DNA from: an uncultured Nitrososphaerota archaeon
Lineage (GTDB): Archaea; Thermoproteota; Nitrososphaeria; Nitrososphaerales; CADDZS01
Reading direction: 5' to 3'
Length of the DNA: 64,000 nt
Assembly (NCBI GenBank): GCA_963799845.1
Contig: CAWCYI010000006.1
Coordinates: 1,344,001 to 1,408,000 of the forward strand
Part shown: piece by piece, positions 24,001 to 29,523 of the stretch
Layout: each line of letters begins with the position of its first letter
Position numbering within the stretch: the stretch's first letter is position 1
Program-made: the position numbers

Positions 24001-27000
24001 GGCACGAGACTTGATTAGCGTACAGTCAAGAAGTATGTTAAAGCATCTTCACGCCGATCAAGCCGAGCGGAAGTAAATGTACGTGCTCTTGCCAATAAGT
24101 CTCATTCCGATGCGCAAGCGACGAGCACTGCTTTCAAGATGTTTCGCGGGGGCAAATCGGCAGTAGACGTTGTGACGGTCATTGGATTGGATCCAAAGAA
24201 AGCACTCGAACTGCACAAGGGATTCCAGAGCCTGAAGGAAATAGAGATGCAGACAGAAGGGGAGCCTTGGTCGTACAAGATAAAGTTGGAAGAATTGCAG
24301 AGGAATTATGATGCCCTTGATCTCGCAAGCTCAAAAGATGCCGCTATCAGTGCGAGTGTAATTCGTTCACTCCAAAAACAGATCAGAGTGAAGGACCTGC
24401 GGATCCGGGACCAGAAGGACGAACTCGATGCGCTCAAAAGTATGATCACAAACGGTGCTTTCGCGACTATTTCGCCACTCCAGAAAACCAAGAGTTTGAA
24501 CCTCCAACAATCCTGACTGGTACGACCGCGATCAATGTTGTCGACATATCCCATTTCATTAGGTTTAGCCGTTAAGCTCCAGACTCTCCTGCCGTAGGAT
24601 GTAATGGATCTATCTTATCATCCTGCTCAAGTTGCTCTTCTCAGATTCAAAGCCTTCTTATAACCAGTTCTGGGAGTTGATGCGAAGAAAAGAGCGATAG
24701 CATCATCGGAGGAATGCATTGAATGGCAAATTACGATTATGATGTAATAATCGCGGGCGGCGGAATGGCCGGCCTCATTACGGCTGCCTCGATTTCTGTC
24801 TACTCCAAACAGAAAGCTCGCATACTTGTGGTTGACAGAAACCCCCCACAGGATCCCGGAAAGAAAACGATAAACGGGTGGACCTGTGGCGACGCGGTAA
24901 GTAAGCGAAGCGTCGATTACATAGCGGACAATATCGGAATTCGTTATGGAACACCTGAACTGGAGCATCCGGTGGAAGGCGTGCTCGTTTACTCTCCAGA
25001 CCACGAAACAAAGGTATTGTTTGAAGGTCAGGGTTTCATCCTCAATCGCAAGATCCTTCCACGCAGACAGGTCGAGGATGCAAAAAAACTCGGCGTAGAG
25101 TTCGTGTATAACGTAATTTGTGACAGACTTTACTCCGAGGACGGGTTTGTTCGCGGAGTAACTGGCCGCTCAATGCCCGAAGGAACTGCTTTCAAGAAGA
25201 CAGCGAAGATGGTAGTCGATGCGGCAGGCTCTGCAACAAAACTTCGCCCCAATCTTCCGTTTCAGACGAAAATCGATGCGAATATTGATCGGGATGATCT
25301 AGAAAGCACAGGCAGATACATCTTTGATTTTGAGGTTGGAACAGAAAATCAGACATGGTTTGATTCCCGTTATGCCCTGATTCATTTAGATCAATATCTC
25401 GCTCCAGGTGGTTACTGCCTTGCCCCCGATACCCCAGTAGTATGTCAAAACAGCTTGAAGCCAATTCAAGATGTAAAATTGGGCGATGAAGTCCTTACTT
25501 CCATGGGCTGGATTCCGGTGGTTGACACGAGTGTCAGGAATTACGAAGGTGAACTCGTCGTCGTCACTCCAAGTATGATAAACTATCCAATTCGACTCAC
25601 TTCGGATCACCTTGTAAGAGTGTGGAATCCTCGAACAGGGGAGTCTTGGAAGAGGGCCGAGGATCTTGTCAGAAGCACTGTCGCTAACCGTCGCAAAAGT
25701 GACTATTTGGTATTTCCCTTACCGAAGAAGAAGGAGTCGCCACTGGAGATTCTGGACATTACGGAATACTGCGAAGGGATTGTTGAGGGAGATTACATGC
25801 ATGTGAGGATTAGACAAGAATTCTACGCCGGAAGATCTCCAGATGGAAGCTATCTCAGAAGAACTGGATATGCAAAACATCCGAAGGGCACGAGATTACC
25901 CACGAAGATACAGCTCGATTCGGACTTCCTTGAACTTTGTGGCTGGTACCTGTCCGAAGGTTGCATAAAGAGAGGTCATGTTACGATCTCGAATACCAAT
26001 GAAGGGCATGTGGATCGAGTAACGTCGTTAATCGATAGATTAGGCTACAATTGGCTTGTTTGGGACAATAGAAGTAATGGGAGGAAACTGTGTCACAACA
26101 TAGAGATTACGAATTCACTTGTCGGAATGCTGTTTTCTAAATGCTTTGGCGTGGGTTCTCATAGTAAGAAACTTCCGAGTTGGGTGCATAACATAAGCGA
26201 GGAAAACAAGCTCGCATTGCTCCGGGGAATGTACTTGGGAGATGGTAGCATCGAACGGGGAAAAGACGGTCGTTCAGACAAACGAGACTACACTACCGTA
26301 TCGCGAGGTTTAGCCGTAGATCTTTGGCTGTTGCTGGCCGGAATGAAGATTGTCGGTTCACTCAAATTAATCAAAAAGAAGAACGCTTGGGCCGTAATAG
26401 TTCCTGGTCACCAAGCTGGATTCTTGGGAGAAAATCTGAATCAATCAAAGAAAAAGCAGAGAGGCGGATTTTTCATTGGAGACGACTGCATTTATCTTCG
26501 AATCAGATCCATCGGCCACGAGAAGTATTCCGGTCCAGTTTACGACATCAACTCTGCAGGGGACTTTACACCCCTGTTCAGTGTTCACAACTGCTGGACC
26601 TTCCCTAAAGGTAAAAGCAAGGTAAATATCGGCCTCGGCGTCCAGAAAAAGCTCTGGACGAGAGAAACAAAAATTTCGGTAAGAAGGACGGATTGCAGGA
26701 TCTGATAGACCAGTACGTTGGCATGAACAAGGTGATCAAAAATCCCGTCCAATCAAAGGAGGAGGACGACGGGGGCAATACGAAAGGGAGCTGGCAGGTC
26801 TCCGTAAGGAGACATAACGATTGTCTTGTAGCCAATGGGTATGCCATGGTCGGGGACGCCGCCTGGATGGCGCGGCCCATTGATGCAGGGGGGATTGGCC
26901 CTTCGATCTACGCAAGCGTGATGCTAGGCAAGGTAGTCGCTCGTGCGATCGAAGCAAACGACACGAGTGAGGAAGGGCTGTGGCAGTATAACCTGGATTA

Positions 27001-29523
27001 CATGAAGCATCACGGCTACCAGATGGCGAGTTTCGAGGTTCTTCGTAGGTACTTGCAAACTCTCACAAATGAGCAGATCAGTTATGGAATGAAGTACTTC
27101 CTCTCCGAAGACGATATCTCAAGTATAGTGAATCGCGAGCACCCTCGGTTCAGCCGGCTGAGATTTTTGAATCCGGCGATGATGGTTCGGATTGCAAAGG
27201 AGTCTAAGCTGAGCTTCCGGCCTGAAACACACAGCGGATTCAAGTGAGGAGCTGATAGCGCACAACATGAACTATCCGGAAAAACCAAGTGGTTTCGTCG
27301 AGTGGAAGAGCCAGTTTTTGTCAAAACTTCAGGAAGCCTTCAGGTTCTAATTTCTCCAATCCCGTGGACAGATTGCAGAGATCGTTCTGAGTTACCTACG
27401 ACCGGATCAAATGTATCATATCGGTGCGCGTTAGTGATTTTTCCCAAAGATGGAAAATCATCATTTCGACTTACGCCAAATTTGCTTACATTGGGGGGAT
27501 TTCGTCTGGTATGTTCATCGAGTTTAACGTTTGGCAACTGGAGCAGGAAAATGACCTTGGCAGCAAAAGAAGAGTTCACAAAAGAAGTCAGGTATGAGAT
27601 ATATTCGTGTGCGTTCTGCGAGTTCGTTCAAAATTCAATGGGAACTGAACGCCTCGAAGCGATTGACGAGAAAAAGTATCTGTTCCATTTGAAACATGTT
27701 CATAACCTTGAACGTTAATCGGCAGTAGTCCAAGACTTATTGCGAGATTAGAATATCTGTCGCGGGAATTGCCTTAGTCGTTCCAGCAGTAGAATGCGCA
27801 ATTTTCATTGACAAAGGCAGGGGACTTGCGATATGCTTACTCTTGCACAGCGTCCTCAAACCAGAGCTCGTTTGAACCCAGGTCGTCCTCGTCATCTTCT
27901 TCATTTTCCTTGATACTTTTTATCTCAATCACTCTCAAAGGCTTCTTATCTTCTTGAGGGTGCTTCACTTCGACTTTGGGTACTTCAACCTCCACCTTCT
28001 GCCTAATTTCCTCTTCGGGGGCTTCGACTGCTGGCGACTTAATTTCTTTGATCACTTCAGGTTCAATCGGCGGCGCCTCTACTTTTGGGGCTTCGACCGG
28101 TAGCGGACGAGCAACTTCCTTTACTGGTTCAAGTCGTTTTTCCTCTATGCCAGATTGTTGGACTAGAACAACGGGTTTGGGCTCCTCCTTTGTGATCGGG
28201 CTGGTCTCGATTTCCATTTCGTCAAGTTCGACAGATCGAATTACTTTTTCGACCTCTTCGAGCGCTCTAACTTCGACTGATTTCGAAATCTTCTTCTCAG
28301 CTGGAGATTCCAATCTTTTTACTTCGATTCGAAGTTCTGAAAGCATCAGTGTCAAGGACCTTGTATCCTGGCTGTATACTTCTTCAGCCAGCATGAATTT
28401 CTTTTTCCGAAATGATTCAACTAGGCCCGCAGCCATTCCATGAAGAAAATAATTCCCAACCGCCTTTCCTGAAAATATTGGAGGATCGATAACTACTATC
28501 CGTTCAAAAGTCGTTTCAGATTCCCAGGTAAAAGATCCCCAACCCGCTGCCTTGAGATATCCTCTGACATTCTCCTGGATTGCATCTTCGGAAAAGCCGG
28601 GCGACATTTTGGTTCGCACCTGCTTCACGACATCCAGCGCATAATTGCGCCCCACGTCTCGCAAGGCAACTTTCGATTCCTCAGAGTTCAGGCGTTCTTG
28701 GATGAGAAAAGTAATGTTCGAGTCGATTGATACGACTCTATTTGTTAGCAATATTGTTTGCGGGAAAAGAAACCCGTCAAACATTCTGTTTTTCAGGCAG
28801 ATCGCATTAGCGTTTCTGACCTGTTTCATCCGTCTTAGTTCAATGATGAGGTCGTCAGGGGTTACACTAACTTCGCCTAGATCGCAAGATATGCAGAGAG
28901 TGAATTCTCTGTTTTTCTCATCGACATAACCCGTCTGCGAGACTATCCTTGCACCACGTTTTAGCAGAGTGTTCAATATCTGAACTTGGATTCCCCGATC
29001 TTCTCGACCATATACCAGGAACGCGTAACTTCTAGGAGTGCCGATTGCTAAATTGCCGATATTATTCGGATAATATTCAACCGAGGGGAGCCGCGGTTTT
29101 CCGAGATGGAAGCTCATCCGGCCTTTCCTACGAGATTGAATGGAATAAGACGCAATTATAGGATTATGGACTTCAGATCTAGATCCTAGCCAACCCCCCA
29201 GTTTCTTCGAGTCGATCTGTTCTGAGCTATTTTGAATTTTGTAAACTCTAGCATCTTACAAACCACCTGGAGGAAGAAATCAAAGGAACCCCACAAAATC
29301 AATTTCGTTTATTCATCACCATTTGATTTGATCGTAGCTTATATCGTGGTGTCTTGGAAGAGTCAATAATTCTGCCTTGAAAAGGGAAATAATTCAGCAC
29401 CTTTCTACCGATCCGAATAGTGCTCGGGCCAGCGAGTTTGTACTGCCCACAAATCCGGAGCTCTTCATGAAAAGAGGGCATTATTCGATTTGAATCTGGA
29501 TTTTCTCGACTATGTTTAATTGA

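Follow-up and report, generated by a model that had tools for sequence, protein, structure and literature searches.

A candidate class-1 LAGLIDADG intein in the substrate-channel motif of a geranylgeranyl reductase-family gene of an uncultured Nitrososphaerales archaeon

Is the long geranylgeranyl reductase (GGR) gene of this archaeon a broken gene, or the precursor of an enzyme interrupted by an intein, and does the saturation of the membrane lipids then depend on protein splicing? The gene lies in a stretch of 64,000 nucleotides (the window) of contig CAWCYI010000006.1. The initial annotation described it as the only GGR gene of the genome, with one apparent frameshift and an end at 27247, and proposed that lipid saturation depends on the excision of the intein.

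We placed the start of the gene at 24723 by a scan of the open reading frames of the window. The frameshift is real in the assembly, but there are two frame changes and not one: from frame 0 to frame 2 at a run of five A (26646-26650), and from frame 2 back to frame 0 near 27211. We checked the frame with short-read contigs from three soil-metagenome runs (X1, X2 and X4), which are possibly the samples behind the window assembly and thus provide an independent check of the technology, not of the organism. The contigs disagree with the window at both sites (Table 1), and the X1 contig that covers both of them (26088-27272) shows no further difference. The first error produces the apparent change from 0 to 2, and the corrected reading (..GVQKKALDERNK..) follows all the homologues. 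The second error is responsible for the return to frame 0 and for a spurious stop at 27247; the corrected tail (..ASGLKHTADSSEELIAHNMNYPEKP..EAFRF, then the stop) matches the homologues. Because the frame changes twice, the gene ends at 27350. Once both indels are set right, the reading is open throughout its 875 codons and the precursor is 85-89% identical to the intact 875-aa protein P0002. Both frameshifts are consensus errors of the assembly and the real gene is intact, as had been guessed earlier for a single, probably long-read, error. Other conserved genes of the window are likewise split, e.g., that of enolase into 29557-29904 and 29904-30899 in different frames, which is what an assembly prone to indels would show.

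Table 1. Features of the precursor gene and of its assembly (positions in the window).
Feature	Start	End	Strand	Basis or remark
Whole precursor gene, long (Sulfolobus-type) GGR with intein	24723	27350	+	Open reading frames, frames and short-read contigs; 875 codons and stop after correction of two indels
N-extein, 231 aa, ends ..LAPGGY	24723	25415	+	Alignment with intein-free GGRs
Intein, 392 aa, precursor residues 232-623	25416	26591	+	Predicted Hint splicing domain split by LAGLIDADG homing-endonuclease domain
Cys1 of intein, block A nucleophile	25416	25418	+	Cys in 46/46 intein-bearing rows
Block B T-x-x-H (TSDH, residues 293-296)	25599	25610	+	Intein T62 and H65 invariant, 43 rows
First LAGLIDADG motif, LCGWYLSEG, residues 405-413	25935	25961	+	Acidic E412 kept; E in 34/46 rows
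Second LAGLIDADG motif, LLRGMYLGDG, residues 499-508	26217	26246	+	Acidic D507 kept; D in 40/46 rows, E in 1
C-terminal splice junction, His-Asn (622-623) then Cys+1 of C-extein	26586	26594	+	HN in 45/46 rows, Cys+1 in 45/46
C-extein, 252 aa and stop, begins CWTFPKGKSKVNIGLG	26592	27350	+	Completes YxWxFPx8GxG motif
Assembly error 1, A5 in place of A6 (lacks one base)	26646	26650	+	A inserted behind 26645 in contigs of X1, X2 and X4
Assembly error 2, one surplus base	27211	27211	+	Base absent from contigs of X1 and X2

The corrected precursor contains an in-frame insertion of 392 aa. Of the 119 aligned database rows (the window row set aside), 74 lack it. Its flanks are colinear with the uninterrupted proteins and rejoin as ..GGY/CWTFP.., which places the insertion between the Y and the C of the YxWxFP motif. 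The ends of the insert read CLAPDTPVV...FSVHN/CWTFPKG. Its extent had been given correctly from the outset, and our own search of the genome returned identical contig coordinates. Apart from P0012, which is truncated, every intein-bearing row extends to position +1 and has Cys there (45 rows), whereas the 74 rows with no intein vary at this position (C in 28, A in 26, S in 14, G in 3, K in 2 and L in 1). Cys10 of the intein is conserved in at least 90% of the rows. The acidic residue of the LAGLIDADG motifs is lost in 12 of 46 rows for the first motif, and in 5 of 46 for the second (Glu counted as acidic).

The profile of the endonuclease (LAGLIDADG_3, PF14528) matches the window protein with 46 bits, for a cut-off of 22.5. 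The Pfam profile Intein_splicing (PF14890) did not match the window protein or P0002 at E ≤ 0.01, and its only precomputed match is on the distant P0045. Since this model was built on other inteins we do not count the miss against the Hint fold, but the assignment consequently relies on the motifs and the fold. The AF2 model of the intein (pLDDT 91.8, pTM 0.88) has solved inteins as top Foldseek matches, i.e., TliVMA (7qsu, E 3.7e-16), PI-PkoII (2cw7), PI-SceI, and PI-PfuI, and it also matches the endonuclease folds of I-DmoI and I-Tsp061I. Sequence, alignment, predicted fold and distribution thus support the classification of the insert as a class-1 LAGLIDADG intein in the PGGY/CWxFP motif of a GGR.

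The window intein shares the architecture of the solved LAGLIDADG intein endonucleases TliVMA/PhoVMA (7QSU, 7QSS, 7QST), PI-PkoII (2CW7), PI-SceI (1VDE and others), and PI-PfuI (1DQ3), i.e., a Hint domain interrupted by a two-motif endonuclease. It also has their Cys1, TxxH, terminal HN and +1 nucleophile. The structural matches to these inteins range from E 3.7e-16 to 2e-9, with TM-scores up to 0.67, and PI-PkoII is also matched by sequence (E 1e-7). Yet, identity is only 10-15%, the host, a putative prenyl-reducing flavoenzyme, is neither an ATPase nor a DNA polymerase, and the activity of the window intein is a predicted one.

The host was assigned at the level of the family. In the N-extein, residues 11-17 (AGGGMAG) belong to an FAD-binding fold, and Cys55 (in WTCGDA, 24885-24887) is the active-site Cys. 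We used the intein-free P0047, which is 94% identical in the exteins, as a proxy for the host in the comparisons of structures and family models. It aligns with the GGR of Sulfolobus acidocaldarius (SaGGR; PDB 3ATQ/3ATR and the 4OP series) over its whole length (3ATQ, residues 3-477, E 7e-57), and more weakly with the DGGGPL reductase of Thermoplasma acidophilum (TaGGR, 3OZ2, E 6e-15). An active-site Cys, YxWxFPx7-8GxG and GGG are the GGR motifs described in PMC6309074, which presents YxWxFP as a substrate-channel motif and mentions Cys47 and YXWXFP in SaGGR. The spliced form of the window protein would read Y-C-W-T-F-P-x8-G-L-G, and would thus share this motif and the active-site Cys with SaGGR. 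In contrast to SaGGR and TaGGR, the gene is interrupted by an intein, has AGG at the position of GGG, and falls below the NCBIfam equivalog cut-offs. With the GGR_cat profile (PF22578, cut-off 27), P0047 reaches 50.6 bits and the window ORF 31.2 bits. P0047 misses the curated cut-offs of NF041080 (289.6 vs 580 bits) and TIGR02032 (109.5 vs 158.8), and for this reason we use the name GGR as a family-level call only.

Family models revealed two further genes of the GGR superfamily in the genome, one of 380 aa (C6:89285-90424) and one of 343 aa (C6:540.5 kb). The description of the intein-bearing gene as the only GGR therefore holds for the long Sulfolobus-type form, but not for the superfamily. 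The 380-aa paralogue is of the Thermoplasma type (TIGR02032, E 4e-42; 3OZ2, E 4.7e-19 over residues 5-335), and its translation, inspected by eye, contains an FxWxxP motif as well as the Cys motif. Among 41 relatives, 38 have it (22 of the 23 high-quality genomes), vs 32 (17 of 23) for the type that hosts the intein. At E ≤ 1e-20, the long-type GGR is without a match in six high-quality genomes of the order. Given these paralogues, the dependence of membrane-lipid saturation on splicing that was proposed initially is not established.

Among the best 120 of 1221 database hits, 45 proteins (P0002-P0046) carry the insert, of which 38 have 866-889 aa; the intein-free homologues have around 483 aa. 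These numbers agree with the initial annotation, which reported more than 30 intein-bearing homologues of about this length (we found at least 38), described the allele as common in Nitrososphaerales and Conexivisphaerales bins, and mentioned intein-free GGRs up to 94% identical in the exteins (P0047). The labels it reported recur among the source names ("LAGLIDADG family homing endonuclease" and "flavin-dependent dehydrogenase"). The presence of the intein is patchy. Six other genomes of the genus include one with the intein, four with an empty site, and one without a match, and a class-wide sample revealed the intein in three of 400 other genomes. On the tree of the exteins (115 rows), the intein must have been gained or lost at least 12 times, at least nine of these events being forced by starred branches. 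The nearest rows of the window on this tree are intein-free, and one clade of 27 rows is entirely intein-bearing.

The divergence of intein and exteins is mosaic. In the comparison with L024, the closest intein-bearing relative, third codon positions of unchanged residues have an identity of 0.71 for the intein, as against 0.44 for the N-extein and 0.59 for the C-extein (Fisher p 1.8e-7). This signal comes from one of 15 pairs, the other 14 being saturated (0.28-0.49) and uninformative. Recombination in the N-extein would yield the same picture at synonymous sites as a low divergence of the intein. The intein as a whole has a dN/dS of 0.10; the values for its endonuclease part and for the C-extein are 0.09 and 0.02, respectively. 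Three observations point to a homing element that is active or was so recently: its patchy presence, an endonuclease dN/dS of around 0.09 and, in the only pair that is informative, a lower synonymous divergence than that of the exteins.

Judging from their sequences, related inteins sit in the YxWxFP motif of two further GGR subfamilies, including in DPANN archaea. P0121, P0122, P0123, P0124, and P0271 are short TaGGR-type hosts with inteins at the same Y/CW site, and differ from the window protein in host subfamily and lineage (source names include Candidatus Anstonellales and Candidatus Diapherotrites). The inteins of P0121-P0124 are 35-41% identical to that of the window (phmmer). P0128, an orthologue of the 343-aa paralogue, differs in having its intein three residues upstream (..GL/C...HN/SGYYWYFP), with Ser at +1. 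A fully supported branch (100%) separates all 51 GGR-hosted inteins from 12 that have other hosts. Another archaeal isoprenoid-lipid enzyme, the tetraether lipid synthase Tes, has a catalogued intein-bearing form (NCBIfam NF045703, an "exception" model), whose intein region matches the GGR inteins with E-values from 1.8e-13 (P0002) to 1.9e-25 (P0121). However, its host is a radical-SAM enzyme with another insertion site, and the match concerns the intein only, far below the cut-off of 1700 bits. Our literature search returned no paper on an intein in the tetraether synthase, nor a published report of one in a GGR. The element is of a well-known kind, with GGR as a new host gene.

We conclude that the locus very probably encodes the intact precursor of a long Sulfolobus-type GGR-family flavoenzyme, interrupted at YxWxFP by a class-1 LAGLIDADG intein that excises itself and persists as a selfish homing element. 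Our data show the insertion and its boundaries, the conservation of its residues, the fold, the reading frame intact in reads, the patchy distribution and the mosaic divergence; splicing, endonuclease activity and the substrate of the enzyme are inferred. Splicing would start with an N-S acyl shift at Cys232, followed by trans-thioesterification onto Cys624, cyclisation of Asn623 and an S-N shift. It would ligate ..PGGY to CWTFP.., giving a reductase of around 483 aa. Without splicing, the precursor should be inactive, its substrate-channel motif being interrupted. The endonuclease would cut intein-free alleles at the DNA of the conserved motif, and repair would copy the intein into them; selfish homing of this kind would explain the patchy distribution among close relatives.

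A true pseudogene would have real frameshifts in a decaying intein-bearing copy, with the paralogues doing the work. The two frame changes in the assembled window, the two GGR-family paralogues and the six genomes without a long-type match would fit such decay. However, contigs of three runs restore the frame at the first site and those of two runs at the second, and the spanning X1 contig is otherwise identical. Apart from the two indels the 2628 bases show no defect, intein and host retain all their catalytic residues, and other essential genes of the window are split likewise. This reading is already largely refuted by the short-read contigs, and we regard it as very improbable. It is equally improbable that the insert no longer splices and stays fused to an inactive or moonlighting protein, with only the endonuclease part being of consequence. 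Nothing specific speaks for such a fusion. Parts of the element do decay in several relatives, but this decay falls on the acidic residues of the endonuclease motifs, whereas the splicing residues are invariant, including the Cys+1 that is free to vary in empty alleles. Furthermore, a split substrate-channel motif should result in a dead enzyme, yet the C-extein evolves with a dN/dS of 0.02.

The intein might also be a conditional switch, sensitive to redox (through Cys1 and Cys+1) or to temperature, that gates the maturation of the reductase and so controls isoprenoid saturation post-translationally. The 27-row clade suggests long vertical retention, the splicing residues are strictly kept, both nucleophiles are Cys, Cys10 is conserved, and the host is a redox flavoenzyme. 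For the RadA intein of P. horikoshii, the discussion of PMC4760082 proposes that splicing is inhibited in a temperature-dependent manner and that this has a functional role. Yet, a pure parasite in a useful gene needs equally strict conservation of the splicing residues, close relatives do without the intein, and the purifying selection on the endonuclease fits mobility rather than domestication. We thus consider a switch quite unlikely. A broader scenario would make YxWxFP a shared landing site, where one intein lineage moved among three paralogous or orthologous GGR subfamilies and between archaeal lineages as distant as Nitrososphaeria and DPANN, and was co-opted, where fixed, as a redox or temperature splicing switch gating an isoprenoid saturase. 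We regard it as a speculative and rather unlikely proposal; if true, control over the saturation of membranes or quinones would lie in protein splicing.

Databases mislabel these genes as homing endonucleases or flavin-dependent dehydrogenases, and in this assembly indel errors split the gene as well; when pathways of soil Nitrososphaeria are reconstructed, GGR could therefore be scored as missing or broken by mistake. According to the survey of PMC4760082, most catalogued inteins belong to proteins of replication or repair or to ATPases; a family of inteins in the substrate-channel motif of prenyl reductases adds a host from lipid or quinone metabolism. Since occupied and empty alleles occur in one genus and related inteins in three GGR subfamilies, these genes offer a natural system for studying how inteins move between paralogous genes via a conserved motif, and also for asking whether splicing limits isoprenoid saturation.

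We aligned the window protein, a long (Sulfolobus-type) geranylgeranyl reductase (GGR), with 119 others taken from the best 120 of 1221 database hits. An insertion of 319-397 aa lies at the identical site in the window protein and in 45 database proteins (P0002-P0046), and is absent from the other 74. The initial annotation had placed it at residues 232-623 (392 aa, DNA 25416-26591); the alignment gives these same limits and a search of the archaeon's own genome returned matching contig coordinates. The insertion begins with Cys in all 46 intein-bearing proteins, ends in His-Asn in 45 and is followed by Cys at position +1 of the C-extein in 45, the truncated P0012 being the exception both times. 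The +1 residue of the 74 intein-free proteins is C (28), A (26), S (14), G (3), K (2) or L (1). It is thus variable in empty alleles and fixed in occupied ones, as predicted by selection for splicing. The block B motif is invariant, and the window intein keeps the acidic residue of each LAGLIDADG motif. Across the 46 proteins, the first motif has E in 34 and the second has D in 40, and the loss of these residues from the others suggests that the endonucleases are decaying in some relatives.

The insertion matches the Pfam profile LAGLIDADG_3 with 46 bits (cut-off 22.5), and Intein_splicing does not match the window GGR precursor. We modelled the intein with AlphaFold2 from 43 aligned sequences (pLDDT 91.8, pTM 0.88). 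The best match to this model among solved structures was the TliVMA intein (7QSU, E 3.7e-16, TM 0.63/0.67). The other top matches were the intein endonucleases PI-PkoII, PI-SceI, PhoVMA and PI-PfuI, whereas free-standing LAGLIDADG enzymes (I-DmoI) ranked lower. Judged by its motifs and predicted fold, the insertion is an intein, canonical in every respect tested. Its GC content (0.463) carries no signature of foreign composition when compared with the N-extein (0.482) and the window (0.464).

Features of the GGR locus, its surroundings and related loci in the same genome (window nucleotides, unless residues or contigs C4 and C6 are named)
Feature	Position	Strand	Remarks
GGR ORF, first piece as assembled	24723-26705	+	660 aa
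GGR ORF, second piece	26693-27247	+	different frame, overlaps the first piece
GGR ORF, third piece	stop at 27350	+	first frame again; encodes ..ASGLKHTADSSEELIAHNMNYPEKPSGFVEWKSQFLSKLQEAFRF
Block B, T-x-x-H	residues 293-296
LAGLIDADG motif 1	residues 405-413		E412
LAGLIDADG motif 2	residues 499-508		D507
Transposase	14382-16004	+	541 aa; DUF772 + DDE_Tnp_1_6
Phosphatase-intein gene	20020-21600	-	527-aa ORF
Two overlapping ORFs just upstream of the GGR gene	22705-23707	+	no Pfam match; transposase-like by eye only
Enolase, in two frames	29557-29904 and 29904-30899	+	Enolase_N positions 1-75; then positions 90-131 + Enolase_C
NfeD, N-terminal and C-terminal ORFs	34114-34767 and 34688-35272	+	probably also split
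380-aa GGR paralogue (L002)	C6:89285-90424		TIGR02032 E 3.9e-42, 145 bits; intein-free
343-aa GGR paralogue (L003)	C6:540.5 kb		TIGR02032 E 9.5e-12 (weaker); ..GYFWYFP..; intein-free
Match to the endonuclease part of the GGR intein (L009)	C4:2024454-2024957
Match to the endonuclease part of the GGR intein (L010)	C6:672452-673138

As assembled, the gene is broken into three pieces, which the alignment with homologues joins into one protein without loss. The initial annotation was right about a frameshift, but counted one and let the gene end at 27247: there are two breaks, one at a run of five A (26646-26650) and one near 27211, and the end is at 27350. Its suggestion that the frameshift was probably a long-read error holds for both breaks. 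One search for public runs holding the stretch returned five soil or peat metagenome runs and no RNA run, and we compared contigs from four of them (X1-X4). Contigs from X1, X2 and X4 have an additional A behind 26645, base 27211 is missing from those of X1 and X2, and one X1 contig covers 26088-27272 with no further difference. A loose end on one contig is what we take to be a transposase-library adaptor, so the contigs would be short-read data, a technology different from that suggested by the 9-contig, 4.6-Mb bin. Correcting both leaves an open frame of 875 codons, whose product is 88% identical over the whole length to P0002, an intact 875-aa protein. Both frameshifts are assembly errors. 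Since the runs are possibly the samples behind the bin assembly, the comparison checks the sequencing, and is not an independent check of the biology. The split enolase and NfeD genes are probably further assembly indel errors, which fits an indel-prone consensus.

Intein-free GGRs of 483 aa reach 94% identity to the window exteins, as had been reported, and we used one of that identity (P0047) as proxy for the host. Its residues 3-477 align with the GGR of S. acidocaldarius (SaGGR, 3ATQ, E 7e-57); the match to the T. acidophilum DGGGPL reductase (TaGGR, 3OZ2) is weaker (E 6e-15). The statements on SaGGR in PMC6309074 place a YXWXFP motif at residues 215-220 of the catalytic domain, where it is presumed to influence how the enzyme interacts with its substrate, and mention Cys47 and a GGG motif as well; the Nitrosopumilus enzyme CnGGR occurs in that paper only as an entry of the candidate table, and we found no statement on its activity. 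The window protein has Cys55 for Cys47 and AGG for GGG and, once spliced, would read Y-C-W-T-F-P-x8-G-L-G at the YXWXFP motif. The intein splits this substrate-channel motif between Y and x, so the precursor is predicted to be inactive. P0047 scores below both curated NCBIfam cut-offs (NF041080, 289.6 against 580 bits; TIGR02032, 109.5 against 158.8), and we therefore assign the host at the level of the GGR family.

The gene had been described as the only GGR gene of the genome, and lipid saturation as dependent on its splicing. Searching the genome with P0047 by BLAST-type comparison indeed returns this locus only, which explains the earlier count, but family models reveal two intein-free paralogues of the GGR superfamily (PF22578 also matches C6:89759-89944 and C6:540950-541138). 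The 380-aa paralogue scores higher with TIGR02032 than P0047 does, and its residues 5-335 match 3OZ2 (E 4.7e-19). Inspected by eye, its translation shows the Cys motif ..PEKCDG.. and also ..FFKWVIP... At E ≤ 1e-20, the 380-aa type has a match in 38 of 41 relatives (22 of the 23 high-quality genomes) and the long type, host of the intein, in 32 (17 of 23), counts that take in one unpublished genome (G401). Six of the order's genomes, 91-99% complete, lack a match to the long type at this threshold. With two further GGR-superfamily genes, one of them of a type commoner among relatives, it is not established that lipid saturation depends on splicing. Prenyl reductases also saturate quinones and polyprenols, and it may or may not be the long form that saturates the membrane lipids in this lineage.

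We studied the distribution of the intein on an extein tree of 115 proteins, built after dropping the partial P0012, P0037, P0042, P0043 and P0044 and removing the intein and +1 columns. Intein presence requires at least 12 changes on this tree, at least nine of them forced by starred branches; shuffled states required 34 on average and none of 500 shuffles was as low as the observed value. One clade of 27 proteins is wholly intein-bearing. The sample is biased, the hits having been ranked by how closely they resemble a query that carries the intein, and proportions within it carry little meaning. Near the window, intein-bearing proteins stand singly amid empty ones, and the window protein itself clusters with the intein-free P0047 and P0048 (98% support). 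At E ≤ 1e-30 the intein was found in three of 400 other species-representative genomes of the class. Within the genus it occurs in G405, and four genomes (G401, G402, G404, G406) have empty sites, where N- and C-extein matches adjoin in ORFs of 422-497 aa; G403 gave no match. The junction is likewise empty, with adjoining extein matches, in five genomes from the rest of the family (G407, G408, G410, G411, G412), and G409 has the N-terminal part only, at a contig end, the junction lying outside the sequence seen. In the empty-site DNA of these five family genomes and of G402 and G404, the +1 position encodes Ala in five (GCT or GCC), Ser in one (TCT) and Cys in one (TGC).

The window intein pairs with that of P0002 in the intein tree (99%). 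P0010 has an extein near those of the two, yet its intein falls outside their group. At the DNA level, we compared the window with the P0002 locus at third codon positions of identical residues. These are identical at 88 of 198 in the N-extein (0.44), 240 of 338 in the intein (0.71) and 139 of 235 in the C-extein (0.59), where identity is highest beside the junction (intein versus exteins, Fisher p 1.8e-7). For the N-extein, the value is at saturation, as in the other 14 of the 15 pairs, which are uninformative. These sequences suggest that the sharing of the intein, and perhaps of the C-extein flank beside it, is more recent than the divergence of the host gene, as homing with co-conversion predicts. 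Recombination of the N-extein is an alternative account of the same pattern. The dN/dS ratio is 0.10 in the intein, 0.09 in its endonuclease part and 0.02 in the C-extein.

One X2 contig (record 9, depth 2-3) stops precisely at 25415, where the N-extein has its last base. This could reflect an empty allele present alongside, at which the assembly graph branches, or may be chance, for which a rough estimate is ~6% for any end on a junction; given this chance and the low depth, we did not count it as evidence of such an allele. One X3 contig (record 15) differs at 10 of 147 bases at the gene start (24692-24838), which shows that the same study also includes a related strain or species whose N-extein has diverged. 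A transposase and two ORFs judged transposase-like by eye lie upstream of the gene, and mobile DNA appears frequent in this stretch.

The genome encodes other intein-related genes. The phosphatase-intein gene, only 3 kb upstream of the GGR gene, has dual-specificity/PTP-SAK phosphatase domains and a match to Intein_splicing. Its intein had been linked to that of the GGR by jackhmmer, a link that did not reappear when the genome was searched with the GGR intein as a single sequence (E ≤ 0.001). Of the loci L009 and L010, one has matches to Intein_splicing and LAGLIDADG_3 in an open frame of at least 864 aa, and the other, a 522-aa ORF, matches LAGLIDADG_3 only.

Full-text literature searches found no paper linking an intein with GGR. 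Matches for 'intein' with 'geranylgeranyl reductase' were unrelated, and there were none with 'digeranylgeranylglycerophospholipid reductase' or 'tetraether synthase'. By title and abstract, the listed matches for 'intein' with 'geranylgeranyl' concern protein lipidation or semisynthesis, and none of those listed for inteins with tetraether/lipid/archaea or 'Thaumarchaeota' is on GGR. The main text and supplementary file 2 of a 2015 survey (PMC4760082) contain neither 'geranylgeranyl' nor 'FAD'. Two JGI proteins are already named 'flavin-dependent dehydrogenase/intein/homing endonuclease', and NCBIfam already has a model for Tes, another archaeal lipid enzyme, in its intein-bearing form. The host and insertion site are new, and the kind of element is known. 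The observation is real, with corrected details; the claim that lipid saturation depends solely on splicing is not supported.

Related inteins occur in other GGR subfamilies. In an exhaustive phmmer search of 1.84 billion representatives with the intein, 3806 hits reached E ≤ 0.001 and 14 reached E ≤ 1e-30; GGR-family hosts account for nine of those 14. With ~390 host residues, P0121, P0122, P0123 and the cluster member P0271 belong to the short TaGGR-type reductases; the first three score 200-220 bits with TIGR02032, above the cut-off, and P0271 was typed from its cluster membership with P0129 and its sequence. The partial P0124 is of the same type (83 bits, under the cut-off). In all five the intein occupies the ..GY|C...HN|CW.. 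site, as it does in the window, and the inteins of P0121-P0124 are 35-41% identical to the window's. Two short-type clusters come from DPANN-labelled bins ('Candidatus Anstonellales archaeon' and 'Candidatus Diapherotrites archaeon'). In P0128, an orthologue of the 343-aa paralogue (42-47% identity), the intein is 31% identical, lies three residues upstream (..GL|C...HN|SGYYWYFP) and is followed by Ser at the +1 position. We built a tree of 63 inteins, in which a fully supported branch (100%) splits the 51 GGR-hosted from 12 with other hosts, which were picked from the top hits with one full-length stretch; five of these are in group-1 glycosyltransferases (Pfam) and seven are without a recognised host family. 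The P0128 intein nests amid the short-type inteins on a long branch, and its placement is unsure. With inteins at or near the same site in several GGR subfamilies, the YxWxFP region of GGR-family enzymes is, as far as these sequences indicate, an intein hot spot.
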